From NCBI GenBank assembly GCA_963846575.1, contig CAWJWJ010000002.1:2208001-2272000 (forward strand): a DNA stretch of 64,000 bases. The letters run 5' to 3'. Positions 6,485 through 51,682 of the stretch are shown piece after piece. The position numbers and the translations under genes were made by a program. A model generated the notes under the pieces. That model worked only from the letters and a program-made list of their open reading frames with translations, was not told where the DNA came from and ran no database searches. The stretch comes from an uncultured Nitrospiraceae bacterium. GTDB taxonomy: Bacteria > Nitrospirota > Nitrospiria > Nitrospirales > Nitrospiraceae. Positions within the stretch are counted from its first letter, which is position 1. Every line of letters begins with the position of its first letter.

Positions 6485-7230
6485 CCTTTGACTCCGCCAC
6501 TTCTCGACTTCAGTCCGAGCAAATCCGAGCTTTGACGGATCCTTGTTATGGTATAACTCCTCCCCCACAGATTCTTTCGCACGAAGGAGTTCACCACCTT
6601 ACTCAATATCAGCTGACTCCTATTCATTAGGTCACTAGTTTTGACGCACCGACCATTCCGAATCACACTCACACTTGCCGCTATCCCTGCAGCCCACTCT
6701 CCTATCTACCGCATCAGAAGGTAGGCAGAGCGCCACCCTGTCCCTTGAGATGAAGTACTCAAATTTCGATTGAGCTTCAATGGCAAATCGCCAAACTCAG
6801 AGAGAAATGAGCAACGTTCCGAAATAACCCGTCACACACTGAACCTTATCCCGCCTTCAATAGGCCCGCCAGCGCATGATCGTGAAGGAACTTTGGCATC
6901 ATCGTGACCGCCCCTTTCAACCTCAAACCTAGAACTTCTCATTTCGTTAATGCCACATCAGGGGTTATTTCCTCTGAACACAGACAGTGAGCGCTATTAA
7001 TCGGCCTTGCCCGTCAAGGTCGTCAATGAGGGTGACACAGGACCCGAACGGTCCCTGACTCTTGACGCTCTACCGCAAGGAGAGTTTGATCGCTCATTGG
7101 TCCCATTTTGTTATTGCAGATTCTGCTCAAGTCATCAAAACCTGCAGTATAATCGTGCGTTCGCCCATCAGGTCAAAATCGCTATCCACGGTTCACATGA
7201 CCACGTACCCCTCGCAAAAGAATAGCCACC

Positions 7231-8373
7231 TCAGTCCCTTGCAACCGATCCATCGATGAACTCCATGAATGCTCTCTTGTTCTCGGCAGGTGTGGTGGTT
7301 GGCCGGCCCAGGTCTTTTCTTGCCCCGCAGTGAACGCGCACTTCTAGTAGACCAGGTCCATCAGAGGCCTTTAGAGACAACAACGCCGGACGAAGCTCCT
7401 CACTAGTCTGGACTCGAGCGGCAAACACGTAGCCAGAAGCACGGGCAAGACCAAGAATATCCACGAATAGCCCTGCCGTCGGTTGCCCGCCAACTGAGTC
7501 GTGAGCTCCATTATTCAGGATGATGTGTTTTAGATTACCCGGCTTGAGGGATCCATTAATGGACAATGCGCCCATGTGCATCAAGAGAGCGCCGTCCCCG
7601 TCAAGACAGTACACGCTCCGCTGCGGATCGTGTAGAGCAATACCCAGTGCGATTTGAGAAGCGTGTCCCATCCCTCCCACAGTTAGAAAATCTCGTTGAT
7701 GGCCTTCACCCTTTTTATCACGACATTCGTACACTTCTCGGGAACACATGCCTGTGGTGGAGACGACCACGTCGCTTGCGTCGAGAGTATCTATCACCTT
7801 ATGGATCGCCTCTTCTCGGGAAAGCTTGAATTCCGATTGTCCTGGCCTCGCAATCTTAAAAGACTTGAAGGTTCCTTTCTTGACTACGAGCGCATAAGGC
7901 GCACTAGCCTTTCGAACGTAGCCAAGAGCGTCAGCCAGAATGGGATCCACATGATCCACATCCGGCCCGATAATGGAATAGGGAACTTCCATTGCCTCCA
8001 GCATGGGAAGCATTACCCGCCCCTGCTTCTTGTGTTGCGGCTCATCATGGACGCCTGGTTCACCTCGCCAACCGATAACCAGCAGCATGGGAATGCCGTA
8101 CACCTCGCTATCAGCTAAAGACAACAAGGGATTAACAACGTTGCCTAAACCGGAGTTTTGCATGTAGACCAAAGGGGTCTTGCCTGTCGCCAAGTGGTAA
8201 CCGAGCGCCAACGATACGGCGCCCCCTTCGTTGGCAGCGACGATGTGTTGATCAGCGCGAGAAAGACTCTCCAAGCAGCTACAAAAATCCTTCAGAAGTG
8301 AATCCGGCACACCGGCATAAAAATCAACTGCATTTGCCTGGAGACTTGTGAGGAATTCCTCTGGATCAATCAT
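7231..8373 (-). CDS. aepY: Phosphonopyruvate decarboxylase
   Basis: FYAGVPDSLLK, ANEGGAV, YMQNSGLGN, DEPQH, TPP motif GDGALLMHMG...NN; directly downstream of PEP mutase. Confidence 0.95.
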   Translation of the reverse strand: MIDPEEFLTSLQANAVDFYAGVPDSLLKDFCSCLESLSRADQHIVAANEGGAVSLALGYHLATGKTPLVYMQNSGLGNVVNPLLSLADSEVYGIPMLLVIGWRGEPGVHDEPQHKKQGRVMLPMLEAMEVPYSIIGPDVDHVDPILADALGYVRKASAPYALVVKKGTFKSFKIARPGQSEFKLSREEAIHKVIDTLDASDVVVSTTGMCSREVYECRDKKGEGHQRDFLTVGGMGHASQIALGIALHDPQRSVYCLDGDGALLMHMGALSINGSLKPGNLKHIILNNGAHDSVGGQPTAGLFVDILGLARASGYVFAARVQTSEELRPALLSLKASDGPGLLEVRVHCGARKDLGRPTTTPAENKRAFMEFIDGSVARD

Positions 8374-35026: not shown

Positions 35027-35137
35027 GCCGCGCCTCACCATTCTTCACCTCAGAGATGCCCTCGCGCGATGGTCCGCCTCCGGCCGGACCCGGGGGAAGG
35101 CTTGCCCTTGCCCCGCACCCATGAGACACTGAAACCG

Positions 35138-36079
35138 ATGGTGCCTCCCACTTATCATGAACTTCGCTCCCGCCTGCAGATCGGGCTCGTACTCAATGCC
35201 GTGATCATACTCGCGGAGTTCGTCGGCGGGTTTCTGACCAACAGTATCGGACTGATTGGAGACGCCGGACACAATCTCGTCGATCAGGGCTCCCTGTTCC
35301 TCGCGCTGTACGCGCACGTGCTGACGGCGCGGCCGGCCACCGATGCGCGGACGTTCGGCTATCACCGGGCCGGCATCGTCGCCGCGTTCCTCAACTCGTT
35401 TCTCCTCCTGCTCACAGCCATCGGCATCACCTTCGTCAGCTTCGAACGCATCATGTCTCCCGTTCCGGTCCCCGGAGGATGGGTGATGCTGATCGCGCTG
35501 ATCAGCTTCGCCGCGAATCTGTCCGTCGCGCTCCTGCTTCAACATGGCGCGAAGGACGACCTGAATATCCGCAGCGCCTTCTGGCACATGCTGACGGACG
35601 CGTGGGTGTCCCTGGGCGTCGTCATCAGCGGAGGCGCCATTCTGCTGACGGGCTGGTCGATCTTCGATCCCCTTGTGAGCCTGCTGGTGGTGGCGGCCAT
35701 CGCCAGAGGCGCCTGGCCTCTCTTTAAGGAATCACTGGAAGTACTACTGGAATCGACGCCGCCCGGCGTCAGCCCCGCGCAGGTCGCCGCCACCGTCGAA
35801 TCCATCCCCGGCGTGAAGAACGTTCACGATCTCCACATCTGGGCGGTCGAGCCGCGGCTCATCATGATGACGACACATGTGCAGGTGGACGGCGGCGACA
35901 ACGCGCTGACGACCGAGCTGCTCCACACGATTCGGAACCGGATCGCAACGGATTTCGGCATCACCCACCTGACGATCCAGTTGGAGACGCAATGCTGCGA
36001 CCCGGAGGCCGTCCACTGCGACCTCAATCGTCTGCACCGTCAACATCCGCAGCGGGAAATCCTCCACAGCCATCACTAG
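35138..36079 (+). CDS. Cation diffusion facilitator (CzcD/ZitB-like)
   Basis: IGDAGHNLVD, TFGYHRAG, AFWHMLTD, VHDLHIW, HLTIQLE; Cys/His-rich tail. Confidence 0.95.
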   Translation: MVPPTYHELRSRLQIGLVLNAVIILAEFVGGFLTNSIGLIGDAGHNLVDQGSLFLALYAHVLTARPATDARTFGYHRAGIVAAFLNSFLLLLTAIGITFVSFERIMSPVPVPGGWVMLIALISFAANLSVALLLQHGAKDDLNIRSAFWHMLTDAWVSLGVVISGGAILLTGWSIFDPLVSLLVVAAIARGAWPLFKESLEVLLESTPPGVSPAQVAATVESIPGVKNVHDLHIWAVEPRLIMMTTHVQVDGGDNALTTELLHTIRNRIATDFGITHLTIQLETQCCDPEAVHCDLNRLHRQHPQREILHSHH

Positions 36080-36104
36080 CCCGCAGGCGATCCTTGCGGA
36101 TACA

Positions 36105-37082
36105 ATGGCTCCCATGGTTCAGACAATCCCCGTTCCCTTCTACATCCTTTGCGGCTCCCTCGGCGCCGGCAAGACAACCTTGCTCATGCGCCTCCTCGAA
36201 TATTGGAATGCTCAGGGGCACAAAGTCGGGGTGCTCATGAACGAAGCGGGGGAAGTCAGCATTGATGGCCCGCGCGCGGGAACGATCGCCGAGCAGGTGC
36301 TCAACCTGGCCGGTGGCTGCATCTGCTGCGATACGAAAGACGACCTGGCGTGGAGCATCACGCAGCTCGTCCAGGATTATCAGTCCACCCTGATCGTGCT
36401 GGAATGCTCGGGCATGGCCGACCCGGCGGAGGTCGTCGATGCCGTGACCGACGCCTACGTGTCGCGGATTGCGAGGCTCGAAAGGATTCTGGCACTGCTG
36501 CACCCGGTCCCGCTTCCCGACTCCGGCATGGCAGAAATGGTGACGCGTAATGCCATTCGTTATGCCGACGACCTGATCCTCAACAAGCGAGATCTCTACA
36601 TCCCAGGACATTGGGAACAGTTCCGTGACACGATCACCCGGTACAACCCCTATGGTCGGCTATATGAAACGAACCACGCCCGGGTGGATATCCCGTCTGT
36701 GCTCGCGGCTCCCATGGTGCGATCGCGTCCGACCAACGTCGCATTCGAGAAAACAAGCGGGTCGGCTGCCACGCGCGACACTCGCGCCCCTGACCATCCC
36801 ATGGTCACCACGGTACGCTTCACGAAGCCGCTCGACCGCATCCGGTTCGTGGCTTGGACACAGTCACTACCCGAAGGACTCGAACGGGCGAAGGGGTTTT
36901 TTCGCTTTGTGCATGAACCGGAGCTGCAGGAGTTTCAGTTCTTCCATCCACGGACCAGCACCATCACCCCGGTGATGCTGCTCGATGAACCGGATCATGT
37001 CATCGTCTTAATCGGGCGCGACTTCGACCAGGAACTCTGCCGCAAGTCCCTCCTCGAGTGTCTCGCCGATTCCAACCGTTAG
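36105..37082 (+). CDS. COG0523/CobW-family metal chaperone GTPase
   Basis: GSLGAGKTT, GGCICC (CxCC), ECSG, NKRD, RAKGF. Confidence 0.93.
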   Translation: MAPMVQTIPVPFYILCGSLGAGKTTLLMRLLEYWNAQGHKVGVLMNEAGEVSIDGPRAGTIAEQVLNLAGGCICCDTKDDLAWSITQLVQDYQSTLIVLECSGMADPAEVVDAVTDAYVSRIARLERILALLHPVPLPDSGMAEMVTRNAIRYADDLILNKRDLYIPGHWEQFRDTITRYNPYGRLYETNHARVDIPSVLAAPMVRSRPTNVAFEKTSGSAATRDTRAPDHPMVTTVRFTKPLDRIRFVAWTQSLPEGLERAKGFFRFVHEPELQEFQFFHPRTSTITPVMLLDEPDHVIVLIGRDFDQELCRKSLLECLADSNR

Positions 37083-37666
37083 GAAATAGATTCCGTAGAG
37101 GCCCGAGGAGCAGGCGCGTTCCCGATGTGATTCGGAAGCGGACGGAAGCGAGACCAGCGGAGAAGCAGCCAGGCTGCGCCCCCTCCAACCAAGCCTCCCA
37201 CGACCCAGCCGCCGATCACGTCAGTCAGGTAATGCGCCCCGATGTAGACACGGGACAGCCCGATCGCCACCACCAGCGGCCAGGTGAACCAACCCGAACG
37301 GGGATAGAGGATCTGGAAAAAGACCGCAGCTGCAGCCGTGTTGGCCGCGTGATTCGAAGGGAAGGAGAACGCTCCCCCGCAGCCCAGCAACTTCTGCACT
37401 TCCGACAGAGTCAGGCAAGGGCGCGGACGTTGAACTAAACCTTTAAGTTGAGTTCCCAGCGCATCGGTACTGCCGATGACGCCCGCCAATGTCGCCAAGC
37501 CGATCACACCCTCCCGCCAGTTGCGCCAAACCCAATAACTTGCGAGCAGCGCGCCGGGATAGTACAGGTTCCCCGGCTTTGCCAGCTCGATCATGATCCA
37601 ATCGAGCGTCGCGGACCGACCGGCAAGATTGTTGATGGCATGAAAAAGGATCTCGTCCAGGTCCAT
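37079..37666 (-). CDS. PAP2-family phosphatase
   Basis: KGLVQRPRP, FPSNH, SRVYIGAHYLTD. Confidence 0.93.
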   Translation of the reverse strand: MDLDEILFHAINNLAGRSATLDWIMIELAKPGNLYYPGALLASYWVWRNWREGVIGLATLAGVIGSTDALGTQLKGLVQRPRPCLTLSEVQKLLGCGGAFSFPSNHAANTAAAAVFFQILYPRSGWFTWPLVVAIGLSRVYIGAHYLTDVIGGWVVGGLVGGGAAWLLLRWSRFRPLPNHIGNAPAPRASTESIS

Positions 37667-37925
37667 ACCGGCGACGATAACGGGTCGGGCGGGATCAGTC
37701 AAATAGTTCGCACAGACTCAGAAGGGGAAAAATTCGGGTTCCTATTCCAACGCGGTCCGTTCATCCTCGCTCCTGAATCGACACACGCTCTACAAGAGGC
37801 CGCCGAATGCGGCAACCCCGGAATGAGAAGCCTCGATGCCCGCCACCCCGCATCACACCGTCACACTCATTTTCACTGCCGATCCTGCACTGCAGCAATG
37901 ACGGAGGCCGCCTCACAGGATTCAT

Positions 37926-38372
37926 CTATTGCGACCGGAAGTGAATGCGTACGGTGAGTGCGCCGTCGACCGGTTCATCACCGTTGAGTTGCGGGTCAAA
38001 GGTCCATTTGTTCAACGCAATCATGCCGGCGACCGTGAGCTCACGATGTTTGGCCGGCTCCAACACCACCACCGTGACCGTCGCATCCTTTGAGACGAGC
38101 AGGCGCGCCTTCATCCAGTCATCGAGCGGCTTGCCATCCAATGACGAAGGAACCGCCGGCCATGGCGTCGACTTCGGCACCGGACCCAGCTGCTGATCCT
38201 TATTCAGCGGCAGACCGTGGACATGCACTTCCGGCAGTTCGATGATGTCGGCATCCAACGCATGGTCCGCTTCATGCGTCGCTTCGTCTCCAGTCACGGC
38301 ATGCGCCGCAAACGGAACACAGAACATCACCGCCGTGGTCATACTCACCATCCATCGCATAGCCTTCACCAT
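37926..38372 (-). CDS. Secreted TonB C-terminal domain protein
   Basis: Signal peptide (AHA); C-terminal KWTFDPQLNGDEPVDGALTVRIHF typical of TonB_C; downstream of the receptor. Confidence 0.72.
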   Translation of the reverse strand: MVKAMRWMVSMTTAVMFCVPFAAHAVTGDEATHEADHALDADIIELPEVHVHGLPLNKDQQLGPVPKSTPWPAVPSSLDGKPLDDWMKARLLVSKDATVTVVVLEPAKHRELTVAGMIALNKWTFDPQLNGDEPVDGALTVRIHFRSQ

Positions 38373-38514: not shown

Positions 38515-40962
38515 TTAAAAAAACCATTGGCCGCGCAGAAAAAACGACCGTGGCATCCCCGCATGGGCGACGCCCAGCCCGATGCTCCCCTCCCCCTGGT
38601 TGATGAAATATTTCTGGTCCAACAGGTTGATGACGTCGAATCCCAGGAGAAACTTCTGCCCTTCCCAGGGCAGCGGGAACACGTGGACAATCGAGAGATT
38701 GTAAATCGTGTAAGAGGGGCTATGGCTGGAGTTGGTCTTCGCCTCCTCGTTCTCCGCCGTTCGCAGGCCGGAGGCAAACAGCATCTGGCCGGTGAACGTC
38801 GTGCGTTCCTTGAAACGGTAACTCACGACAGCCGAACTCGTCAGCGTCTGCATATGGTCGCAAAACACTCCGCCCCGCGAGTTGATGTCCGAAATCTCCT
38901 TCGCTTCGAGGAGAAAATGGCCCGACTGCAACCCATAGCCCTTGCATTGCCCCCAGGCCACATTGCCGCGCGCCGTCAGGTTGTCGGCCAACTGCAGTTT
39001 CAGCGCCCCGTCGATGCCGCGTTGCCACCCGCGGTCGAACGCAAAGTAGTTTAACAGCGGCGTGGTGCCGAATTGCCCGGCATCCGACAGGAAGTTGCTG
39101 AGCTTGTACCATCCCGTCAATTGCAGCGTCGCATAGCGATTCAGCGCATGATAGCTGCCCACCTCGAAATAATGCGCCCGTTCGGCCCGGACTGTATTGT
39201 TGGTCAGGTCTTCCGGTTCCGCCCTCGTGCCCACCGTGTTCAGCTTGGCAAACGAGATCGCTTCGAGATTCGGGGGCGTGAACAGTCGTCCATAAAACAC
39301 ATGGAAGACGTTGGACTGGTTGTACTTGTAGCTCGCTCCCAGACGCGGGCTGACCTGTCCTTCATCCCGCAGATATTGGACGACATCGGCCCGCAACCCG
39401 AGGTTGAAGGTCCACTGGTCGTTCGGGCTCCATTGGTCTTGAATCCAGAACTCCTGGCGATAGCCGATCTGGCGGTTGTCGGCGTTGAGACCGAGCAGGT
39501 CACCTGTGGGATTCCCCGCGCCGTCGTCCGCGAAGGTAAAGAGTCGCGTCTTATTGACGGCCTGCGTCCGATCGAGTTGAAACCCCGTCTTGATGAGGTG
39601 CTGCTTGCTGTGCACATAGGTGTAATCGAGCCGCAAGCCGGTCGAATAGGCCCTGCGATCCTGATCGGAGGCCGAAAACGGCTCGGAAGGATCCGCCGTA
39701 TAGGCCAGAAAGTTGAGCGGGTCCGTTTTGAAGATGGCCCGAGTATGGCGGATATACCCCGCCAGGCTGAAAAAATTGTTGGCGTTGACGTCATGCCTCC
39801 ACACCATGTGGCCGTACTGATTATTTTCTTTTTGGAACTCATCGATGGCCTGGGAGGCCACGGGAGTAAAGCCGGGGCGGCTCGCCTGCAGGAGCGGCAG
39901 CAGCTGCCCGCTCGGATCCAGTTCGAGGCCGGGCCTGGTGGGGATTTGATACTTGGCCACCGAATTCAAGAACAGCCAGGTGAAGTTATTCTTGTTGTCG
40001 TGCTGATAATCCCCGCGAATGAAGGTTTGATTGCGTTCGCTCTGTCCATGAAAAATCGAGTGCCCCAGGGTCGGCGGCTCGATGCCACGGTTCGTCGTCG
40101 TATAGCTATTCAAAATGTAAAAGCGGAACTTTTCGCCGATCGTCCCGCCATACTCCAGGGACGGGTTGAGGGTCCGGTTCGACCCGCCCATCGTTTGAAT
40201 CGATCCGAAGGCCGGTTTCGTCCCGCTTTTGGTCGTGATATCCAGGACAGCCGCCGCCTTGTTTCCGTACTGCGCTTCCAAGCCCCCGAGAATGATGTCG
40301 GCCCGTTCCCAGGCGCGCGGACTGATGACATCGGAGAAGGTGGAGGACACGGTGTCCGGAATCGGAACCCCGTCGATCCGCAGTTGCAGGTTCGCATGGT
40401 CCTGACGGATATGCACCTGCTTGAGCGAGCCGTACACCGCGCTGGGGATCGTCAGGAGCACGTCATGAAGCTCGACATTGTTGCCGCGCGGCAGAAGTTC
40501 AATTTCCTTTCGGCTCAGCGAGTAGGTTTCGCTCGAGGCCTTGTACTGGATGGGCGGCAGCGAGGTCACGACCTCAAGCGCGATCTCATTGGTCGTCGAG
40601 AGCGTCAGCGTGACGGGCGGGATCGGGTCCCTGCCCACCTTGATGATGGTATATTCGCTTCGCAAAGACTCCTGCACGGCGCTGACCGAATACGTGCCTT
40701 CGTGAACGACCTCCACGACAAATTCTCCCGCGTCGTCCGCCACCGCCGAACCGACCAGGCTCCCTTCCTGATCCTTCACCTCTACCCTGGCCTGCGGGAC
40801 ACGCCGGAGATCCTGACTTTGTACCGTCCCCGAAATCGTGTGTACGTGGCTCACCGACGGTGCCGGGCCCTCCGCCGCCTGGGCCGGCAGGGTCCCGAGC
40901 AAGCCACTGACCAATAACAAACCCACCCACACCCGACCTATGGTGCTGACTGACAAACCCAT
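38515..40962 (-). CDS. TonB-dependent receptor with N-terminal carboxypeptidase-regulatory-like domain
   Basis: Signal peptide, plug (RIDGVP, AQYGN, DITTKSG), beta-barrel, NLLDQKY...PRSFFLRGQWFF; ATG 40962 with GGGGAGG SD. Confidence 0.95.
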   Translation of the reverse strand: MGLSVSTIGRVWVGLLLVSGLLGTLPAQAAEGPAPSVSHVHTISGTVQSQDLRRVPQARVEVKDQEGSLVGSAVADDAGEFVVEVVHEGTYSVSAVQESLRSEYTIIKVGRDPIPPVTLTLSTTNEIALEVVTSLPPIQYKASSETYSLSRKEIELLPRGNNVELHDVLLTIPSAVYGSLKQVHIRQDHANLQLRIDGVPIPDTVSSTFSDVISPRAWERADIILGGLEAQYGNKAAAVLDITTKSGTKPAFGSIQTMGGSNRTLNPSLEYGGTIGEKFRFYILNSYTTTNRGIEPPTLGHSIFHGQSERNQTFIRGDYQHDNKNNFTWLFLNSVAKYQIPTRPGLELDPSGQLLPLLQASRPGFTPVASQAIDEFQKENNQYGHMVWRHDVNANNFFSLAGYIRHTRAIFKTDPLNFLAYTADPSEPFSASDQDRRAYSTGLRLDYTYVHSKQHLIKTGFQLDRTQAVNKTRLFTFADDGAGNPTGDLLGLNADNRQIGYRQEFWIQDQWSPNDQWTFNLGLRADVVQYLRDEGQVSPRLGASYKYNQSNVFHVFYGRLFTPPNLEAISFAKLNTVGTRAEPEDLTNNTVRAERAHYFEVGSYHALNRYATLQLTGWYKLSNFLSDAGQFGTTPLLNYFAFDRGWQRGIDGALKLQLADNLTARGNVAWGQCKGYGLQSGHFLLEAKEISDINSRGGVFCDHMQTLTSSAVVSYRFKERTTFTGQMLFASGLRTAENEEAKTNSSHSPSYTIYNLSIVHVFPLPWEGQKFLLGFDVINLLDQKYFINQGEGSIGLGVAHAGMPRSFFLRGQWFF

Positions 40963-41073
40963 GCGAACCTCCCCCAATGAATCTGCTTCCATGCAGAGCC
41001 GTGCCCGGGTCATTTGCCCGGGCAACCTCCAGTAAACATGAACGTCACGTTGAGGTTAGGAACGGGGAGGCGC
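40963..41073 (-). promoter_or_regulatory. SD-sequestering multibranch RNA structure (translational attenuator candidate)
   Basis: CCUCCCC (41064-41070) pairs with SD GGGGAGG (40968-40974) and encloses three hairpins. Confidence 0.65.
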
Positions 41074-41376
41074 GCGCGAAGTCCTAAGCGTACCGAGCGA
41101 TTGTGAGACAAGGATCGATTGATAGGCGGCGGACGATGGGGCTTCTGCGAGGAGGGAACAGGTCGCCGGTGCGTCCCCGGCCAGCGAGTGGCCCGTGTGG
41201 TACTGCACCCACTGACAGAGGTCGGTATCCGAATGTTCGTGGCCGTCGTGATCGGCTGCCGCCAGATCGTGATGAATCTGCAACGCCGCCGCGAACGGCA
41301 CCATGGCCAGCAACAAGCACGCGAGGAGCAGGGCGACCGCTCGTCTTGAATTGACATGGGGATGACGGGAAGACAT
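41056..41376 (-). CDS. His-rich secreted leader protein with C-terminal RAPP motif (DUF2946/CruR-like)
   Basis: Signal sequence, HHDLAAADHDGHEHSDTDLCQWVQYH, ends SRAPPRS*; directly upstream of a TonB-dependent receptor. Confidence 0.8.
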   Translation of the reverse strand: MSSRHPHVNSRRAVALLLACLLLAMVPFAAALQIHHDLAAADHDGHEHSDTDLCQWVQYHTGHSLAGDAPATCSLLAEAPSSAAYQSILVSQSLGTLRTSRAPPRS

Positions 41377-41410
41377 CAATGGCCAGATAGTTCCAGTTTT
41401 TCAACCGTGG

Positions 41411-41439
41411 GTTGTAACAAAGCCGTGAAGTGAAAGCAA
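41411..41439 (-). promoter_or_regulatory. Sigma-70-like promoter for the RAPP leader/receptor operon
   Basis: TTGCTT-17 nt-TACAAC with a TGn extension. Confidence 0.5.
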
Positions 41440-41465
41440 GAACGAGCCGTCCGCTGCTCACGCTC

Positions 41466-41494
41466 TGGACATTCCACAATCTATTCGCTATGGT
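41466..41494 (+). promoter_or_regulatory. Sigma-70-like promoter for DAHP synthase
   Basis: TGGACA-17 nt-TATGGT. Confidence 0.45.
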
Positions 41495-41549
41495 AGAGGC
41501 CACTCTTCAATCACGGAATGAGCAACCTGCCGTTCCTAAAGGGACCACC

Positions 41550-42608
41550 ATGACCAGGCCGATCGACAACCAGCACGTTATTGAAATCAAGCCGCTCCCC
41601 TCGCCTCGCGATGTCAAGACCCGTCTACCGATCACCGACGACGTGGCGGAGCTGGTATTTCAGACGAGGCAATCGATTCGGAACATCCTGCATGGCCGTG
41701 ATATGGAACGGCTCATCGTGATCGTCGGCCCCTGCTCGATCCACGATGCCGACGCCGCCTACGAGTATGCCGAACGGCTCAGGCCGGTCGCCGAAGCAGT
41801 CCGTGAGAAACTTCTGGTCGTGATGCGCACCTATTTCGAAAAGCCCCGGACCACCGTGGGCTGGAAGGGATTGATCAACGACCCCCATCTCGACGGCACC
41901 TGTGAGATTGCCCAGGGTATCCAGCTGGCCCGGACGATCCTGTTGAACATCAATGGGAAAGGGCTTCCCTGCGCGACGGAATTGCTCGACCCGGTCACGC
42001 CGCAGTTCATTGCGGATCTCCTGAGTTGGACGGCGATCGGGGCACGCACCACCGAGAGTCAGATTCATCGCGAAATGGCGAGCGGCCTGTCGATGCCGGT
42101 CGGGTTCAAGAACGGCACCGAAGGGAGCCTACAGGTCGCGATCAATGCCATGATCACCAGCCGCAGCCCGCACCACTTTGTCGGAGTCAACGCCGACGGC
42201 ATGACCTCCATCATCAAGACCACCGGCAATCCTGACCATCACATCGTGCTTCGTGGCGGCGGCGGTCGCACCAACTATAGCGTCGAAGACATTGCCCGCG
42301 CGGAAGGCGCCGTCGCCACCGAAGGCCTCGCACGCGGCGTCATGGTGGATTGTTCCCACGACAACTCGGGAAAGAACCATCAACGTCAGGTTGAAGTCGC
42401 CGGAGAAGTCCTTAAACAATTCCGGCAAGGCCGCCGGTCGATCATGGGCGTCATGCTTGAAAGCCACTTACAAGGCGGTAGACAGAGTTGGGATCCGAGC
42501 AAGGCTCTCACCTACGGGATGTCGATCACCGACTCCTGCCTGGCCTGGGACGATACTGAAGCCCTCCTCCACGGCATGGCCGAGGCGCTCGCCACGCGTC
42601 CCGTCTAG
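41550..42608 (+). CDS. aroG: 3-deoxy-7-phosphoheptulonate synthase, class I-alpha
   Basis: GPCSIHD, YFEKPRTTVGWKGLINDP, IGARTTESQ, DCSHDNS. Confidence 0.96.
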   Translation: MTRPIDNQHVIEIKPLPSPRDVKTRLPITDDVAELVFQTRQSIRNILHGRDMERLIVIVGPCSIHDADAAYEYAERLRPVAEAVREKLLVVMRTYFEKPRTTVGWKGLINDPHLDGTCEIAQGIQLARTILLNINGKGLPCATELLDPVTPQFIADLLSWTAIGARTTESQIHREMASGLSMPVGFKNGTEGSLQVAINAMITSRSPHHFVGVNADGMTSIIKTTGNPDHHIVLRGGGGRTNYSVEDIARAEGAVATEGLARGVMVDCSHDNSGKNHQRQVEVAGEVLKQFRQGRRSIMGVMLESHLQGGRQSWDPSKALTYGMSITDSCLAWDDTEALLHGMAEALATRPV

Positions 42609-42940: not shown

Positions 42941-45900
42941 TTGACCAGTTCGTCGTCTCCACTGAAGGGAATCTCGACATTGAAGATCCGCAACAGATTA
43001 CGTGAAGGCCGTCTCCGTGTGACCGATGTTCTGAGGAGGAGCACTCTGTCACAGTCGGATGTCGGCCACGAACCTCCGTTGCGCTCGGAGCTGTTCAGCG
43101 CCGGGCAGATGCACCAACACGGTAAGACGCTAGCGGGATCGCACGAGGTGAGTGCGGATCACGAACCGGACCAGTTGCTCAGCCGGTTGGCGGAGAATGA
43201 AGCGGTGCTGATGGAAGTGCGCGGCCTGGTGTCGGATGCCATGAAGGGCAGTCGTCGCATCACCCCCGCCGGTGAATGGTTATTGGATAATTTCTATTTG
43301 ATCGAGGAACAGATCCGCATGGCCAAGCGGCACTTGCCCAAGGGCTACAGCCGTGAGCTGCCTCGTCTCGCCAAGGGCCCTTCCACCGGCCTGCCACGGG
43401 TCTATGACATCGCTCTGGAAATCATCTCCCACGGGGATGGTCGAGTCGATCCGGAAAGTCTCAGCAGTTTTGTGGTGGCGTACCAAACCGTCACAGCCCT
43501 GAAGCTGGGCGAGTTATGGGCCATTCCCATCATGATCCGCCTGGCATTAATCGAAAATCTGCGACGCGCCGGCGCACGCATCGCGAGCGACCGAGTGCAT
43601 CGCAATCGCGCCTACGAATGGGCCGGCCAGATGATGGAGACGGCAGAGAAGGATCCCAAGAGTCTCATCCTGGTCATCGCAGACATGGCACGATCGAACC
43701 CGCCCATGGTGAGCGCCTTCGTGGCGGAACTTGCCAGGCGGCTTCAAGGGCAAAGTGCGGCACTGGCGTTGCCGCTCACCTGGATCGAGCAACGGTTGTC
43801 CGAGTCGGGACTCACCATCGAACATCTGGTGCAATCGGAGACGCAACAGCAGGCGATCGACCAGGTCTCCATGAGCAACAGTATCGGCAGCCTCAGGTTC
43901 CTGGCCGCGATGGACTGGCGCGAATTTGTCGAGGCCCACAGCGTCGTGGAGCAGACTCTGCATGCAGATCCGGCAGGGGTGTATAGCCGGATGGACTTTG
44001 CGACACGGGACCGCTACCGCCATGCGGTGGAGAGACTGTCCAAACGTAGTCCTCTCTCGGAACCTGAAGTCGCGACACGGGCCGTTCGGCTCGCCGAACG
44101 CCGGGCCGGTGAAACGGGAACGGACCATCGCGACGCCCACGTCGGCTTCTATCTGGTCGATAAGGGGCAGCCTCAGTTGGAACAAGCAGTCGGCATGCGC
44201 CGCTCGTTATTCGACTGGATCGGGAAATGGAGCGGCCGAGGCGCGACACCGGTCTATCTCGGTTCCATCCTGCTCCTGACGGCCGCGTTGACAGGCGGCT
44301 TCCTTGCCCTTGCGGCTGCCGATGGCTGGAGTGCCTGGCGGCTTGCCTTGATGGGATTCCTTTCGGCGTTGGCCTCCAGTCAGCTCGCGGTGACCCTGGT
44401 GAACTGGCTCGCCACGGCCCTCGTGACACCGAACCCGCTTCCGCGAATGGATTTCACCGAGGGTCTTCCTCCTGAATTACGAACCCTGGTGGTCGTCCCC
44501 ACCCTCCTTCAGAATGCACAGGGCGTCGAAGACCTCATCGAGGCGCTCGAAGTCCGGTTCCTCGCCAACCGGGACAGACACCTCCACTTTGCACTCCTCA
44601 CTGACCTTCCCGATGCTGCGCATGAAACTGTTGCAGAAGATGACCAGGTGGTGCGGCTCGTCCAGACACGCATCGAAGCGCTGAATGACAAATACAACAG
44701 CGAGCACGGCGAGACGTTCTTCCTCTTTCATCGACCACGTCGCTGGAATGCCCAAGAGCGGGCGTGGATGGGGTATGAGCGGAAACGTGGCAAACTCGGG
44801 GACCTGAACGCGCTGCTCCGGGGCGGTTCAGAGGATCGCTTCTCGATGGTGATCGGAAAGACGGCAATACTGTCCTCCGTCAAATACGTGATCACGCTCG
44901 ACACGGATACGCAACTGCCTCGCGATTCCGCTCGCCAGTTTGTGGCAGCGATGGCACACCCTCTCAATCGTCCACGGTATGACCTCAAGGCCCAGCGAGT
45001 CACCGAAGGGTATGGCATCCTTCAACCTCGCGTGGCCGTCAGCTTACCCGGCACCAACCGATCAAGGTACGCGCGTCTCAATGCCAGCGAACCGGGCATT
45101 GACCCTTATACCCGCGCCGTTTCGGATGTGTATCAGGACGTCTTTGGAGAAGGGTCTTTCATCGGCAAGGGCATTTATGAGGTCGAGGCCTTCGAACGGG
45201 CGCTCCACAACCGGTTTCCGGAAAATCGAATCCTCAGCCACGATCTGCTCGAAGGTTCCTATGCGCGAGCCGGGTTCTTGAGCGACGTCCAGCTGTATGA
45301 GGAATATCCAGCCCGGTACCGCTCGGATGTCGCCCGGCGGTATCGCTGGATTCGCGGAGACTGGCAGATCGCACGATGGGCATTTCCGCAAGTACCGGGG
45401 GCTAACGGGCGCACCCAAAACAATCCGCTCTCAACACTCGCCCGTTGGAAGATCTTTGACAACCTGCGCCGAAGTCTCGTGCCTGCGGCGATGCTGTCCC
45501 TGTTCCTGCTGGGCTGGACCGTTCTGTCTCCCGTCTGGCTCTGGAGCCTCTCGGCGCTTTCGCTCCTCCTGATTGCTCCACTGATGGCCGCTTTCGGGGA
45601 TCTGTTTCGTAAGCCAGAAGATGTGCGGCTCGACCAGCACCTGACGTCGACGGCTCGGGCCACGACGCAACAGCTTACGCACGCCATGTTGACCCTCATG
45701 TGCCTGCCCTATGAGGCCTACTACAGCCTGGGGGCAATCCTCCGGACAGCCGGCCGCATCTGGCTCACCCGCACGCGTCTATTGGAATGGAGCCCATCAA
45801 GCACAGTGCACGGAACCGCAACGGGCCTGATCGGAGAGTACCGATCGATGTGGGTCTCCCCAGGCCTTGCCCTGGGGACCGCAGCCTATCTCCTGCTCTC

Positions 45901-48900
45901 GCGCCCGGACGCACTGCTGGTAGCAGGACCGGTGTTGATCCTCTGGGGGACGTCTCCCCTGTTCACCTGGTGGATCAGTCGGCCGATCGCCCGGTACGAG
46001 GCGAAGCTCACGGCGGACCACACCCTGTTCCTCCGCAAGATGGCCCGCAAGACCTGGGGATTTTTTGAGACCTATGTCGGCCCGGATGACCACTGGCTTC
46101 CGCCGGATAATTACCAGGAGCACCCCGTCCCGCGAGTGGCACACCGCACGTCGCCGACGAATATGGGCCTGGCGCTGCTCGCGAACTTGTCTGCCTACGA
46201 TTTCGGCTACCTGTCAACAGGACGCCTCCTGGAACGCACGAAACAGGCTTTCGACAGCATGGCGAGATTGGAACGGTATCGAGGCCACTTCTACAACTGG
46301 TACGACACGCAGTCCTTAAAACCCCTCTTGCCCATGTACATTTCGTCCGTGGACAGTGGGAACCTGGCCGGACACGTCCTGACGTTGCGGTCGGGGCTGC
46401 TCACCATCCCGGATCATGCGATCCTCTCTCATCGCGTCTTTGACGGCCTTCGCGACACCCTGACGATCTGGAACGATGCTCTCGGAGAGGCGGGGGACCT
46501 CCCACTCGGCAGGCTGAGTACGGAGTTGACCGCTGCATCCCTGGACAGCTCGGCCACGCTCACGGCGGCGCACCGGTCTCTGGATGGCCTGGCGACGCTC
46601 GCGGCTGAAGCCGCGTCTCGTCTCGATACCACTGCGGACGGGAATGCACGACGATGGGCCCATGCCTTTGAGCAACAGTGCCGTGGCGCGCTCACTGATC
46701 TGACGGTGCTTGCGCCCTGGATCGGTCTTCCGGACTCGCCTCGCACGCTCAGTTCCTTCCCGGAATTAGACCAGATACCGACACTCCGGAGACTGACCGA
46801 ACTGGAAAGCGAATGGCTGCCGGCAATTGAGCAACGACTCGGTCCCGACACCACGGAGCCGGATCGGGACTGGCTGGCCGGACTTCAACGGCATCTCAAC
46901 GACGCGGGCCAGCGCGCCGGTGAACGCATCACCTCGCTTAATCACCTGGCCTGGCGATCGGGCCAGTTCGCCCGGATGGAGTTTGACTTCCTGTTCGACG
47001 GGACACGGTTCCTCCTGTCTATCGGGTACAGCGTCACAGACCGACGGCGCGATGTCAGCTACTACGACCTTCTGGCATCGGAAGCACGATTGTGCAGCTT
47101 CGTCGCCATTGCGCAGGGACAATTGCCGCAGGAGAGCTGGTTTGCCCTGGGGCGCCTGCTCACGACCACGGGTGGAGATCCCATTCTCATGTCCTGGAGC
47201 GGTTCGATGTTCGAATACTTGATGCCGCTCCTGGTCATGCCGACCTACCAGCACACGCTGCTGGATCAGACCTATCAGGCTGCGGTGGCAAGACAGATCG
47301 AATATGGACGGGAGCGGGGCATACCCTGGGGCGTATCCGAATCCGGCTATAACATGGTCGACGTCCATTTGAATTACCAGTACCGGGCGTTTGGCGTGCC
47401 CGGCCTGGGCCTCAAGCGGGGGCTGGGTGAGGAGTTGGTCATCACGCCCTATGCCACGGCCCTCGCCCTCATGGTCGCGCCCGAAGAAGCCTGCCTGAAC
47501 CTGCAACGGCTCGCCGCGGAAGGAGCTGAAGGCCCATTCGGATTATATGAAGCGATCGACTACACGCCGTCTCGCCTTCCACGCGGCCAATCGAGTGCCG
47601 TGGTTCGTTCGTATATGGCCCACCACGTAGGGATGAGTTTTCTTTCCCTAGCCTACGTGATCCTGGATCGTCCGATGCAACGGCGCTTCGAAGCCGAACC
47701 GTTGTTTCAGGCGACCATGCTGTTATTGCAGGAACGGATTCCAAAGGCCACCGCGTTCTATGCTCACAGCGCCGAGCTCTCAGACCTCCGCCCGGCATCG
47801 GGTGTTTCGGAAACGCCGGTTCGCATCCTGACTACGCCGAACACGCCGGTTCCCGAAGTGCAGCTCCTGTCCAACGGCCGATATCACGTCATGGTCACCA
47901 ATACGGGTGGCGGGTACAGCCGCTGGAAGGACCTGGCGGTCACGCGATGGCGTGAAGACAGCACCTGCGACAACTGGGGGACGTTCTGTTACATCCGCGA
48001 TGTCGAAAGCGGAGAGTTCTGGTCGATGGCCTATCAGCCGACGCTCAAACCGTCGAAAACGTACGAGGTCATCTTTTCAGAAGGGCGTGCGGAATATCGA
48101 CGCCACGACCATGAGATCGAGACGCACGCCGAGATCGTGGTGTCCCCTGAAGATGATATTGAACTGCGCCGGATCCGCCTCACGAACTGCTCCGGAACCA
48201 GGCGTACCATCGACCTGACCAGCTATGCGGAGGTCCTGCTGGCATTGCCGGCGGCCGACGCCCTGCACCCGGCATTCAGCAACCTCTTTGTGCAGACTGA
48301 AATCGTCCCTGAGCGTCAGGCGATTCTCGCCACACGCCGCCCCCGTTCACTCAACGAGCAGGCCCCCTGGGCATTTCACCTCATGGCGGTACGTGGCCCC
48401 CACAGCGGAGAAATCTCTTACGAGACGGACCGCATGCAGTTCATCGGCCGCGCCCGCACGCTTGCCTCCCCGCAAGCCATGGACCGTTCCGCGCTCTCGG
48501 GAAGCCAGGGCTCCGTGCTGGATCCGGTGGTGTCCATCCGTTGCCAGATCGTCCTTGATCCGGAAGAGTCCGTCACGGTGGATCTCGTATCCGGCATTGG
48601 CGAGACCCGGGACATCTGTCTGCGCCTGGTCGATAAATATCAGGACCGGCATCTCGCCGATCGCGTCTTCGAGTTGGCCTGGACACACAGCCAGGTGGTG
48701 TTGCGGCAACTGAACGCCACCGAAGCGGACGCGCAACTCTACGGACGTCTGGCCGGCTCGATTCTCTATGCCAATGCCTCCTTGCGGGCCGAGGCGTCAC
48801 TGCTCAGCAAAAACCGCCGCGGACAGTCCGGCCTCTGGGGTTATGCCATATCAGGCGATCTGCCGATCGTACTGCTCCAGATTGGAGACCCCTCGAACAT

Positions 48901-51682
48901 CGATCTGGTGCGTCAGATGGTCCAGGCCCATGCGTACTGGCGGCTGAAGGGACTCGCCGTGGACCTCGTGATTTGGAACGAAGACCACGCCGGATACCGC
49001 CAGGTCTTACATGACCAGATTATGGGGCTGATTGCAGCCGGGGTCGAAGCTCATGTGATCGATCGCCCCGGGGGAATTTTCGTGCGCACGGCCGAACAGA
49101 TGTCGGTCGAGGACCGCCTGCTGCAACAATCGGTGGCGCGGGCCATCCTCACGGACCGACGAGGCGCGTTGGCGGACCAGCTCGCCCCGATGACGGCCTC
49201 CGCGGCACCGGCCTACCGTTTCAAGCCGACACGCACGCATCGGCCCGATGCGCCGGTGCTTATTGAGGCTCGAGAAGATCTGCTCTTCTACAATGGCCTC
49301 GGCGGGTTCTCTTCCGATGGCCGGGAGTACGTCATCACCACGGGACCGGAGCAGGTAACGCCCGCCCCCTGGGTCAACGTGCTGGCAAACCCCTACTTCG
49401 GCACGGTGGTCTCCGAGCATGGTCTCGCCTACACGTGGGGCGAGAACGCGCATGAATTCCGCCTCACACCCTGGCACAACGATCCGGTCACGGATTCCAG
49501 CGGAGAAGCCTTGTATCTCCGGGATGAAGAGACCGGTCACTTCTGGTCGCCGATGCCAATGCCCACCCGGGGTACCAGCCCCTATGTCAGCCGGCATGGC
49601 TTCGGCTACAGCGTCTTCGAACATTCAGAAAATGGCATCCGCTCCGAGGTGTGGGTCTATGTCGCGCTGGATGCCTCGGTAAAATTTACGGTGCTGAAGC
49701 TGCATAATGAATCCGGCCGCCCCCGACGGTTGTCGGCAACCGGGTATGTGGAGTGGGTGCTGGGTGACCTGCGCCCCAAATCGGTCATGCACGTCGTAAC
49801 AGACATCGATCCCCTTACTGGAGCGTTCTTTGCCCGGAACCATTACAACACGGACTTCCCCGGACGCGTTGCCTTCTTCGACGTCGATGAGGGCACCCGG
49901 AGCATCTCCGGAGACCGGACTGAATTTCTGGGACGGAACGGGACCCTTTCCAATCCGGCCGCAATGGGTCGCTCGCGACTGTCGGGGAAGGTGGGCGCGG
50001 CCCTGGATCCCTGCGGGGCCATCCAGATCCCGTTCGAACTCGCTCAAGGACAAGAGCGTGAGATTATCTTTCGATTGGGAATGGGAAAGGACGCCGATGA
50101 TGCCCGTCAGCTCGTCCGTCGCTTCCGGGGCTCGATGGCAGTTCGTGGGGCACTGGAAACAGTCTGGCACCACTGGACCCATACCCTGGGCGCCGTACAC
50201 GTCGAGACGCCCGATCAGTCCCTCAACGTGCTCGCCAATGGCTGGTTGCTGTATCAAACACTGGCCTGCCGGCTCTGGGCGCGGAGCGGATACTATCAAT
50301 CGGGGGGAGCCTATGGGTTCCGCGATCAGCTGCAAGACGTGATGGCGCTGGTGCATGCCAAGCCACATCTCGCGCGGGAACAACTCCTCCTGTGCGCGAG
50401 CCGGCAGTTCCAGGAGGGAGATGTGCAACATTGGTGGCATCCGCCCTCGAACCGGGGCGTGCGGACGCGCTGTTCAGATGATTTTCTCTGGCTTCCCTTC
50501 GTCACCAGCCGCTACGTCATGACGACCGGAGACACCGGCATCTTGGATGTCCCGATTCCGTTTATCCAAGGCCGCCCGATCAACTCGGACGAGGATTCGT
50601 ATTACGATCTCCCGAGCCGGTCGGAACAATCAGGCACGTTGTATGAACATTGTGTGCGCGCCATTCTCAAGGGTTTGACTCAGGGCGAACACGGTCTCCC
50701 CCTCATCGGCTCCGGCGACTGGAACGACGGGATGAACATGGTCGGTGATCGCGGCCAGGGCGAAAGCGTGTGGTTGGGATTCTTCCTCTACGACGTCCTC
50801 ATGCGATTCGCGGCCGTGGCACGCAGGAAGGATGATGCGCCGTTTGCGGAACGCTGCCAGGCGGAAGCGGATCAGCTGCAGCGGCATATCGAAGCAGAGG
50901 GTTGGGATGGCGAATGGTATCGCCGTGCCTACTTTGATGACGGCTCCCCGCTGGGCTCCTCCAGTAATGAGGAATGCCAAATCGATTCCATTCCACAAAG
51001 TTGGTCTGTGTTATCAGGGGCGGGTGATCCGAGCCGTTCTCGATCAGGGATGGAGGCCGTATACACGCGACTGGTCCGGCAGGACAACGCCTTGATTCAA
51101 CTCTTGGATCCCCCCTTCGATAAGTCGCTGTTGAATCCCGGCTATATCAAGGGGTATGTCCCGGGGGTGCGCGAAAACGGAGGCCAATACACGCATGGCG
51201 CCCTCTGGACCGTGATGGCCTTTGCGGCACTGGGTGACCGCGAGCGCGCCTGGGAGCTTTTCGCCCTGATCAATCCGGTGAACCATGCCCGATCGCCAGA
51301 AAAGGTCGGGGTGTATAAAGTCGAACCCTATGTCGTCGCAGCGGATGTCTATGCCGTGTCACCCCACACAGGTCGCGGCGGATGGACCTGGTACACAGGC
51401 TCAGCCGGCTGGATGTACCGGCTGATCGTGGAGTCACTCCTCGGCCTGAGGCTGGAAGGAGCCCTATTACGATTCGTCCCCTGCCTTCCCCTCGAGTGGA
51501 CGACCTTCAAAGTCCACTACCGATACCGGGATACGGTCTATCACATTACTGTGCGGCAGACTCGCGACCCGGAATCTGCCATGTCGGTGACCGTGGACGG
51601 GACTCATCGTGCTGATTCCGCGATTCCACTGGTTGACGATCGCCGGGAGCATTCGGTTGAGGTGATCATTCCCGGGGGGTGA
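42941..51682 (+). CDS. ndvB: Cyclic beta-1,2-glucan synthase (NdvB/ChvB/Cgs; C-terminal GH94 phosphorylase)
   Basis: ~2900 aa; EWLLDNFY, ERKRGKL, LSHDLLEG, RWIRGDWQ, YQSGGAYGFRDQLQD, GDWNDG, ENGGQYTH; start may be TTG 42980. Confidence 0.95.
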   Translation: MTSSSSPLKGISTLKIRNRLREGRLRVTDVLRRSTLSQSDVGHEPPLRSELFSAGQMHQHGKTLAGSHEVSADHEPDQLLSRLAENEAVLMEVRGLVSDAMKGSRRITPAGEWLLDNFYLIEEQIRMAKRHLPKGYSRELPRLAKGPSTGLPRVYDIALEIISHGDGRVDPESLSSFVVAYQTVTALKLGELWAIPIMIRLALIENLRRAGARIASDRVHRNRAYEWAGQMMETAEKDPKSLILVIADMARSNPPMVSAFVAELARRLQGQSAALALPLTWIEQRLSESGLTIEHLVQSETQQQAIDQVSMSNSIGSLRFLAAMDWREFVEAHSVVEQTLHADPAGVYSRMDFATRDRYRHAVERLSKRSPLSEPEVATRAVRLAERRAGETGTDHRDAHVGFYLVDKGQPQLEQAVGMRRSLFDWIGKWSGRGATPVYLGSILLLTAALTGGFLALAAADGWSAWRLALMGFLSALASSQLAVTLVNWLATALVTPNPLPRMDFTEGLPPELRTLVVVPTLLQNAQGVEDLIEALEVRFLANRDRHLHFALLTDLPDAAHETVAEDDQVVRLVQTRIEALNDKYNSEHGETFFLFHRPRRWNAQERAWMGYERKRGKLGDLNALLRGGSEDRFSMVIGKTAILSSVKYVITLDTDTQLPRDSARQFVAAMAHPLNRPRYDLKAQRVTEGYGILQPRVAVSLPGTNRSRYARLNASEPGIDPYTRAVSDVYQDVFGEGSFIGKGIYEVEAFERALHNRFPENRILSHDLLEGSYARAGFLSDVQLYEEYPARYRSDVARRYRWIRGDWQIARWAFPQVPGANGRTQNNPLSTLARWKIFDNLRRSLVPAAMLSLFLLGWTVLSPVWLWSLSALSLLLIAPLMAAFGDLFRKPEDVRLDQHLTSTARATTQQLTHAMLTLMCLPYEAYYSLGAILRTAGRIWLTRTRLLEWSPSSTVHGTATGLIGEYRSMWVSPGLALGTAAYLLLSRPDALLVAGPVLILWGTSPLFTWWISRPIARYEAKLTADHTLFLRKMARKTWGFFETYVGPDDHWLPPDNYQEHPVPRVAHRTSPTNMGLALLANLSAYDFGYLSTGRLLERTKQAFDSMARLERYRGHFYNWYDTQSLKPLLPMYISSVDSGNLAGHVLTLRSGLLTIPDHAILSHRVFDGLRDTLTIWNDALGEAGDLPLGRLSTELTAASLDSSATLTAAHRSLDGLATLAAEAASRLDTTADGNARRWAHAFEQQCRGALTDLTVLAPWIGLPDSPRTLSSFPELDQIPTLRRLTELESEWLPAIEQRLGPDTTEPDRDWLAGLQRHLNDAGQRAGERITSLNHLAWRSGQFARMEFDFLFDGTRFLLSIGYSVTDRRRDVSYYDLLASEARLCSFVAIAQGQLPQESWFALGRLLTTTGGDPILMSWSGSMFEYLMPLLVMPTYQHTLLDQTYQAAVARQIEYGRERGIPWGVSESGYNMVDVHLNYQYRAFGVPGLGLKRGLGEELVITPYATALALMVAPEEACLNLQRLAAEGAEGPFGLYEAIDYTPSRLPRGQSSAVVRSYMAHHVGMSFLSLAYVILDRPMQRRFEAEPLFQATMLLLQERIPKATAFYAHSAELSDLRPASGVSETPVRILTTPNTPVPEVQLLSNGRYHVMVTNTGGGYSRWKDLAVTRWREDSTCDNWGTFCYIRDVESGEFWSMAYQPTLKPSKTYEVIFSEGRAEYRRHDHEIETHAEIVVSPEDDIELRRIRLTNCSGTRRTIDLTSYAEVLLALPAADALHPAFSNLFVQTEIVPERQAILATRRPRSLNEQAPWAFHLMAVRGPHSGEISYETDRMQFIGRARTLASPQAMDRSALSGSQGSVLDPVVSIRCQIVLDPEESVTVDLVSGIGETRDICLRLVDKYQDRHLADRVFELAWTHSQVVLRQLNATEADAQLYGRLAGSILYANASLRAEASLLSKNRRGQSGLWGYAISGDLPIVLLQIGDPSNIDLVRQMVQAHAYWRLKGLAVDLVIWNEDHAGYRQVLHDQIMGLIAAGVEAHVIDRPGGIFVRTAEQMSVEDRLLQQSVARAILTDRRGALADQLAPMTASAAPAYRFKPTRTHRPDAPVLIEAREDLLFYNGLGGFSSDGREYVITTGPEQVTPAPWVNVLANPYFGTVVSEHGLAYTWGENAHEFRLTPWHNDPVTDSSGEALYLRDEETGHFWSPMPMPTRGTSPYVSRHGFGYSVFEHSENGIRSEVWVYVALDASVKFTVLKLHNESGRPRRLSATGYVEWVLGDLRPKSVMHVVTDIDPLTGAFFARNHYNTDFPGRVAFFDVDEGTRSISGDRTEFLGRNGTLSNPAAMGRSRLSGKVGAALDPCGAIQIPFELAQGQEREIIFRLGMGKDADDARQLVRRFRGSMAVRGALETVWHHWTHTLGAVHVETPDQSLNVLANGWLLYQTLACRLWARSGYYQSGGAYGFRDQLQDVMALVHAKPHLAREQLLLCASRQFQEGDVQHWWHPPSNRGVRTRCSDDFLWLPFVTSRYVMTTGDTGILDVPIPFIQGRPINSDEDSYYDLPSRSEQSGTLYEHCVRAILKGLTQGEHGLPLIGSGDWNDGMNMVGDRGQGESVWLGFFLYDVLMRFAAVARRKDDAPFAERCQAEADQLQRHIEAEGWDGEWYRRAYFDDGSPLGSSSNEECQIDSIPQSWSVLSGAGDPSRSRSGMEAVYTRLVRQDNALIQLLDPPFDKSLLNPGYIKGYVPGVRENGGQYTHGALWTVMAFAALGDRERAWELFALINPVNHARSPEKVGVYKVEPYVVAADVYAVSPHTGRGGWTWYTGSAGWMYRLIVESLLGLRLEGALLRFVPCLPLEWTTFKVHYRYRDTVYHITVRQTRDPESAMSVTVDGTHRADSAIPLVDDRREHSVEVIIPGG

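Follow-up and report, generated by a model that had tools for sequence, protein, structure and literature searches.

The window, a stretch of 64,000 nucleotides from an uncultured Nitrospiraceae bacterium, carries on its minus strand a short open reading frame, here called the leader, ahead of a gene for a TonB-dependent receptor. The translated leader has a hydrophobic N-terminus, followed by a His/Asp stretch and a CQW motif. The original prediction described it as a candidate ribosome-arrest leader whose last codons hide the receptor's Shine-Dalgarno (SD) sequence, and the parts that it named are present in the ORF list and the RNA fold at the positions it had given: the 106-residue leader with its RAPPRS end, the gap of 93 nt between the leader stop codon and the receptor ATG (40962), and the anti-SD helix. 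The features of the locus are:

41411..41439, minus strand: predicted sigma70-type promoter (-35 at 41439-41434, then 17 nt and an extended -10 at 41416-41411)
41056..41376, minus strand: leader ORF of 106 aa, from ATG at 41376 to TAA at 41056, C-terminal end RAPPRS
41284..41376, minus strand: predicted export signal, residues 1-31, with cleavage placed by eye after Ala31
41197..41274, minus strand: candidate metal site, residues 35-60, with H35, H36, D42, D44, H46, H48, D52, C54 and W56 invariant
41077..41196, minus strand: spacer, variable in sequence and fixed in length; the mRNA of its 3' part is C-rich and a possible Rho loading site
41065..41076, minus strand: predicted RAPP arrest motif, two residues ahead of the stop in 103 of 106 orthologs
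41064..41075, minus strand: anti-SD strand in the Arg/Ala/Pro/Pro codons, the core of which (41070-41064) pairs with 40968-40974
40976..41057, minus strand: three inner hairpins (41057-41024, 41024-41002, 40997-40982), predicted here and not conserved
40960..40975, minus strand: receptor SD sequence and ATG
38515..40962, minus strand: TonB-dependent receptor, 815 aa, with an N-terminal carboxypeptidase-regulatory-like domain; from context, zinc is the probable substrate
37926..38372, minus strand: small exported protein whose match to TonB C-terminal is weak; it comes after the receptor in 10 of the 18 larger loci
37079..37702, minus strand: PAP2 phosphatase, present in 11 of 18 larger loci
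35069..37082, plus strand: CDF metal transporter and COG0523/CobW GTPase, convergent

A receptor start at TTG 41025, kept as an alternative in the original prediction, was rejected. Orthologs retain an SD sequence and ATG at the same distance as at ATG 40962, and several have an in-frame stop codon just upstream; we therefore place the start at ATG 40962. A PDB sequence search with the receptor gave no match and named no substrate, and a fold search with its predicted structure (pLDDT 64.6) returned generic matches only, at 10-15% identity. The best named match of the convergent CDF transporter is ZitB, below the cut-off; CDF transporter and COG0523 genes lie near the leader locus in 8/18 and 9/18 larger loci, respectively. 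The plus strand of the window also holds a 2913-aa ORF (42941-51682), which resembles a cyclic beta-glucan synthase/phosphorylase of the NdvB type.

The leader is the first gene of a metal-homeostasis operon, with the predicted promoter directly upstream and either the receptor or a porin-ZnuA gene set downstream. A promoter-like score was reached upstream of 91 of 106 leaders and 2 of 100 coding controls, the score and its threshold having been chosen after the sequences had been viewed. The leader ATG lies 8-14 nt past the -10 box in 65 of these 91 promoters (34 nt at this locus), so most leader transcripts would be nearly leaderless. A crude operator search found no spaced palindrome upstream of the leader common to more than 3 of 32 genera, and a Zur-type pattern has a single match in the window, near 6545, far from the leader locus. 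At 6540-6560 the window has an AT-rich GTTA-N5-TAAC palindrome, one of nine in the genome, which may be no more than the -10 region of a promoter. The host genome encodes three Fur-family proteins, and their best matches are the Fur, PerR and Fur profiles, not Zur; the Zur profile is proteobacterial, and the absence of Zur from this genome is therefore not proven. In two genera the gene directly before the leader is of the Fur family, and in a further genus a Fur-family gene follows the receptor (L129:2533-2946, L108:1103-1519, L134:3807-4223).

Conservation of the leader and its relation to DUF2946

Relatives of the leader occur in 136 of 151 genomes of the family Nitrospiraceae and in 36 of its 39 genera, a tally that includes one unpublished genome (G076), which entered none of the later comparisons. 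A profile search of a 301-genome sample of the phylum recovered the leader in all 57 sampled genomes of the family, in 14/27 and 1/1 genomes of two sister families and, apart from a single weak match in a fourth family, in none of the remaining families. Among 1.84 billion representatives searched, 92 matched the leader, and most of 80 named records with leader relatives are Nitrospira, Nitrospiraceae or Nitrospirota.

For comparison, 110 loci were fetched (the 30 best matches plus 80 picked to span genera, hence not a random sample), and 106 of them yielded 107 strong leader matches; these loci share kinship and are not independent. R[AG]PP together with CxW is present in 106 of the 107 (102 RAPP, 4 RGPP), which bears out the expectation that the arrest motif is conserved in orthologs. 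The residues listed above for the candidate metal site are identical in 106/106 leaders, H60 is kept in 98/106, and H36, H48, C54 and W56 are invariant in 46 distant leader sequences as well. The Cys-to-Arg distance is 47 residues in 104 leaders and 48 in the other two, and 103/106 leaders have exactly two residues after PP. A further set of 80 named loci, some of them shared with the first set, gave a distance of 47 in 79 of 81 matches and the receptor downstream in 74 of 80. A spacer of fixed length without fixed sequence is the pattern expected of a nascent-chain ruler. Among 2250 long ORFs of the host genome RAPP occurs 3 times, compared with 39 occurrences of AAPP, and its presence in the leader is more than chance. 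Ala31 is present in 105/106 orthologs, and every aligned leader has, as judged by eye, the basic/hydrophobic/Ala-x-Ala pattern of an export signal. The predicted structure of the leader has a helix over residues 8-42; with a pTM of 0.39 the model is too weak for the metal site to be read from it.

Three leader copies are damaged or extended (L065, minus strand, leader region; L046, plus strand, 1440-1839; L139:10814-10997): one of them is without the HH segment and RAPP, one runs 21 residues beyond PP, and one is truncated. The host genome encodes four further RAPP/RGPP leaders with hydrophobic N-termini (G000:C1:1199269-1199604, 1204563-1204928 and 1213619-1213960, all L113, and C1:1008514-1008915, L114), three with CxWxC and one with a single Cys; they precede a BNR-repeat protein, a TonB receptor, a TPR-containing ORF and a siderophore-type TonB receptor.

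The leader has no family in NCBIfam and no assignment in Pfam, and Rfam gave no match at E<=5 across 40800-41700. The proposed kinship with DUF2946 did not show in a search with the window leader itself, which has no PF11162 match at E<=1 (curated cut-off 23.7 bits); weak matches, short of that cut-off, appeared for 11 of 22 aligned family members (best E 0.012). A cluster with 16% DUF2946 ranked 22nd for the leader in the ESM Atlas, and a profile comparison of the leader family with one CxxC leader gave 56% probability over 27 columns only. CxxC is missing throughout the family: there is one invariant Cys, with mostly Thr, Ser or Phe at position -3 and Val at +3 in 105/106. The leader is probably a zinc-linked variant of the copper-sensing peptide switches of the CruR/CutF (DUF2946-like) kind.

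Masking of the receptor Shine-Dalgarno sequence

The minimum free energy fold of 41100-40940 has, as predicted, the anti-SD helix together with each of the three inner hairpins (z = -2.37; 3 of 200 shuffles as good), and the pairs 41070-41064/40968-40974 have probabilities of 0.98-1.0 at four fold lengths from 161 to 551 nt. The predicted three-hairpin junction is local to this genome: when 14 loci of the same genus are aligned, its hairpins show no conservation.

For tests across the family we used the 86 of 106 loci with a usable ATG 75-125 nt past the leader stop, and dropped the other 20. The gap is short across orthologs, mostly 81-116 nt. Longer gaps follow one-Cys RGPP leaders of COG0523 genes (L067, L070, L071, L149) and hold a shared, probably structured sequence. 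When one locus was drawn from each of 22 genera, 200 times over, the duplex between leader end and start region was more stable for cognate than for shuffled genus pairs (-19.0 vs -16.5 kcal/mol, p<=0.008), whereas control segments from mid-gap and upstream coding sequence gave p values of 0.44 and 0.074. The expected covariation between anti-SD and SD is thus seen in cognate preference but weak in alignments, where few two-sided changes occur within genera, because the register of the helix slides between genera.

The original prediction assigned the masking to the Pro-Pro codons and to the choice of CCUCCC. At this locus the native Ala-Pro-Pro codons rank second of 64 synonymous sets for hiding the receptor start. 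Pro codons can pair with any SD by composition. Across the family, the SD is paired (p>=0.3) with the Ala-Pro-Pro codons in 31/86 loci and with the last codons or stop region in 41/86, and the native Pro-Pro codons have a mean masking rank of 8.2 of 16, equal to chance, in 22 loci, one per genus. In the predicted folds the stop region is therefore the masking strand as often as the Pro codons, and we reject the Pro codons as the anti-SD rule of the family. The first Pro codon is CCT in 64/106 leaders (59% when weighted by genus, vs 22% for the first Pro of PP in the host genome), a preference that fits SD masking but fits a C/U-rich Rho site as well.

Comparison across loci supports masking within reach of a stalled ribosome. 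With a modelled stalled-ribosome footprint, the cost of opening the receptor start at this locus falls from 20.2 to 9.5 kcal/mol. Across the family the modelled stall lowers the cost by at least 2 kcal/mol in 74/86 loci and by at least 4 in 57/86; the gain is below 2 kcal/mol in 12/86. With the ribosome placed further upstream as a control, gains of at least 2 kcal/mol occurred in 11/86 loci, and background gene pairs of the host genome gave at least 2 in 13/82 and at least 4 in 5/82.

Gene context and the sensed metal

In nine genomes (G019, G272, G294, G324, G348, G359, G362, G384, G401) the leader precedes genes for a porin-like protein and for a binding protein of the ZnuA/AztC type; the scan identified an ABC ATPase and permease in three of these genomes, and in a tenth genome the leader stands with a porin at a contig end. 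In the eight ZnuA-type proteins that were aligned, three His occupy the ligand positions, and a zinc-uptake protein is the top match in the PDB. Three His ligands mark zinc over manganese in this class of binding proteins, which can also carry manganese or other ions. No receptor match was found in any of the eight porin-ZnuA genomes within the phylum sample, so the leader has exchanged importers. In G272 an IS1595-family transposase (L137:1949-2902) lies between leader and porin and may uncouple the switch.

Related one-Cys leaders precede COG0523 GTPase genes in four loci, one of them with ZupT. A CopC/CopD locus was seen once, with a two-Cys leader at its head instead of one of the one-Cys/His type. 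One genome has two leader copies in separate units, one with the receptor and one with ExbB. In G353 the leader precedes an unannotated exported protein of 321 aa (L262:5955-6917) and a CDF transporter; CDF transporters are usually exporters. Three tandem ZigA-type GTPase genes lie near a weak leader match in G012 (L151:3152-6929).

The receptor has 18 plasmid homologs at about 30% identity, five of which were examined for context. Three of the five adjoin a regulator that best matches Zur, one of these with zigA and a zinc ABC system and one with an exact copy of a published alphaproteobacterial Zur box. One of the five also adjoins nikR; an annotated DUF2946 leader heads another, and one lies where no metal genes are annotated. 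Of six distant Nitrospirota homologs of the receptor, five have a His-rich CxxC leader at their head. In genus g40, all 14 examined genomes have the receptor with no leader ahead of it. In 13 of these 14 (L239-L252) a conserved non-coding element of ~90 nt, found by eye ~250 nt upstream of the receptor, may be an operator pair or an RNA element; L244 has an AT-rich palindrome instead.

The original prediction took the absence of CxxC to suggest a different metal. CxxC leaders precede distant homologs of the same receptor, so this loss is not in itself a sign of such a change; a metal other than copper is nevertheless indicated by gene context, which narrows the choice to zinc. On this evidence zinc is the best-supported metal and a reasonably probable one, and by the same context the receptor would take up zinc; nikR beside one homolog, the G353 locus, the plasmid homolog with no annotated metal genes and the g40 receptors that have no leader run counter to it.

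Proposed mechanism and relation to known leaders

We propose that a plain sigma70 promoter, recognized by its conserved sequence, would transcribe leader and receptor together. While the leader end is free of ribosomes, its last codons or stop region would pair with the receptor SD and keep the receptor off, a step that is based on the predicted fold and supported by covariation. A ribosome would stall with the first Pro of RAPP in the P site, as excerpts of PMC10987492 and PMC12992588 describe for RAPP ribosomes, by analogy with ApdA, ApdP and CruR. In the model, the stalled ribosome would cover the masking strand, free the SD and so turn the receptor on. The 47 residues to the Arg would place the metal site just past the exit tunnel and membrane, where plentiful zinc may bind the His/Asp/Cys site, induce folding and release the stall, turning the receptor off. 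We favor this direction since most of the genes under control encode importers. The zinc-triggered shut-off may be aided by Rho-dependent termination. We give a probability of roughly 0.55 to the whole chain, in which an arrest leader acting in cis ties production of an outer-membrane importer to the supply of a metal, most likely zinc, with stalling, export, metal binding and the sign of control as we infer them. That the leader is an arrest leader acting in cis is very likely; that it senses a metal is likely, and SD unmasking quite probably contributes to control.

The same metal-sensing arrest leader could act mainly through Rho-dependent termination, with the anti-SD helix secondary, as CruR works via Rho according to passages of PMC9426467. 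The C-over-G excess of the leader mRNA peaks just ahead of RAPP, and over the last 25 codons it exceeds the synonymous expectation in 95/106 orthologs (0.148 vs 0.091); this C richness goes beyond amino-acid need and leaves room for CruR-type termination. The cognate-specific pairing, the footprint-dependent release of the SD and a gap of mostly 81-116 nt, compared with 162 nt for cruR, argue against Rho as the main output, which we regard as unlikely; the two outputs can coexist. Marginally less probable again is a sensed metal other than zinc (Co, Ni, Mn or Cu), or a metal that, as in CutF, lengthens the stall and switches on the receptor. The nikR gene beside one receptor homolog, the leader ahead of a CDF transporter and the CxxC leaders ahead of the same receptor family point that way, as do the His-only CutF-like clusters ahead of Ni/Co genes reported in passages of PMC9973294. 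They are outweighed by the nine porin-ZnuA loci, the COG0523 and ZupT loci and the Zur-like regulators at three homologs, by the two-Cys leader of the single CopC/CopD locus, and by the consideration that an importer would hardly be induced by its own metal.

An improbable reading takes the peptide for a small periplasmic metal-binding protein of the ordinary kind, or for a SecM-like secretion monitor, that senses no metal in cis. In its favor, so well conserved a His/Asp domain is unusual for a leader, and a signal peptide plus arrest motif is the layout of SecM and ApdP too. Such a protein would hardly explain a variable spacer of fixed length, the retention of a RAPP motif that is depleted in the proteome, or the position of the leader as first gene before metal genes of several kinds, and no sec or yidC gene was found among the downstream genes scanned.

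To our knowledge, both characterised metal-sensing leaders respond to copper. CruR (Bp2923) of Bordetella pertussis belongs to DUF2946/PF11162 (PMC9426467, in part), and its arrest is shown in excerpts of PMC12992588. In CruR the second Cys of CxxC (C93) stands 46 residues before the Arg (R139), a spacing that matters according to passages of PMC9426467; in six CxxC leaders ahead of homologous receptors the corresponding distance is 45-47 residues. The leader resembles CruR as a protein of ~100-150 aa with an export signal (here predicted), a Cys 46-47 residues from a C-terminal RAPP, a place as first gene before a TonB-dependent receptor and C-rich mRNA near its end; the direction, in which metal would shut down import, is also the same. 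It differs in having one Cys in CxW with a His/Asp cluster in place of CxxC, in falling below the PF11162 cut-off, in its zinc rather than copper context, and in a conserved helix that masks the SD, where CruR makes use of Rho. CutF of Rhodobacter capsulatus (PMC9973294 and bioRxiv 10.1101/2025.02.05.636593, in the passages used here) likewise has an exported nascent chain in which roughly 45 residues separate a metal motif from a proline-rich stall (here predicted), and a stalled ribosome that opens a structure hiding the next SD (here in silico). CutF has CxxxC, and copper induces its stalling and a detoxifying oxidase; in the Nitrospira family the masking strand lies within the leader's own last codons, and the opposite sign is suggested because the targets are mainly importers. 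ApdA/ApdP and SecM share RAPP-type arrest (predicted here) and SD release by a stalled ribosome, but they monitor protein export, control sec genes and have no metal motif (PMC10987492 and PMC12992588, in excerpt). The leader would thus share its sign with CruR and its output with CutF or SecM.

The rule-based definition of CutF-like proteins in passages of PMC9973294 (<150 aa, PP among the C-terminal 15 residues, a signal peptide, and a same-strand gene within <=1000 nt) covers the window leader, with its 106 aa, PP at 103-104, a 93-nt gap and a signal peptide recognized by eye. These passages also describe His-only (clusters 14 and 17) and mixed His/Cys CutF-like clusters and suggest other metals; clusters 14 and 17 share the histidine-type metal motif but precede HupE/UreJ. 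RAPP/RGPP uORFs with a signal sequence before TonB-dependent receptors are widespread in Gram-negative bacteria according to excerpts of PMC12992588. The passages of PMC9973294 and PMC12992588 contain no zinc assignment and no Nitrospira family, and "Nitrospira" is absent from three supplement text files of PMC9973294, which at 8,054 characters cannot hold full protein lists; the leader family may be among unlisted entries of the published sets (PMC9973294, PMC12992588, PMC9426467). A literature search that covered few subscription papers found no description of the leader family or of a zinc-sensing arrest leader. The suggestion that the variant is uncharacterised stands so far for this family, but histidine-type leaders as such are already in print (PMC9973294, in part).

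A wider reading is tentative, and we consider it rather doubtful: zinc uptake in Nitrospirales would be governed by nascent-chain sensors in place of Zur. The leader would read periplasmic zinc and couple it to a TonB receptor or a porin-ZnuABC operon, and its motif would encode the choice of metal, one Cys plus His for zinc genes and two Cys for copper genes. This reading builds on the Fur-family proteins of the host, none of which matches Zur best, and on the proteobacterial receptor homologs beside Zur-like regulators. Passages of PMC9426467 state that no riboswitch has been described for copper or zinc and propose that protein leaders fill this gap. If true, a zinc-responsive arrest peptide would add a second metal to the mechanism. 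It would combine the sign of CruR, where metal releases the stall, with the output of CutF, the release of an SD. The leader family has few members, almost no variation and no annotation, and both its target operon and its metal motif have been swapped in nature, so that the metal tuning of arrest can be tested with reporters. The finding would bear on trace-metal control in nitrifiers that are important for water treatment and the nitrogen cycle.
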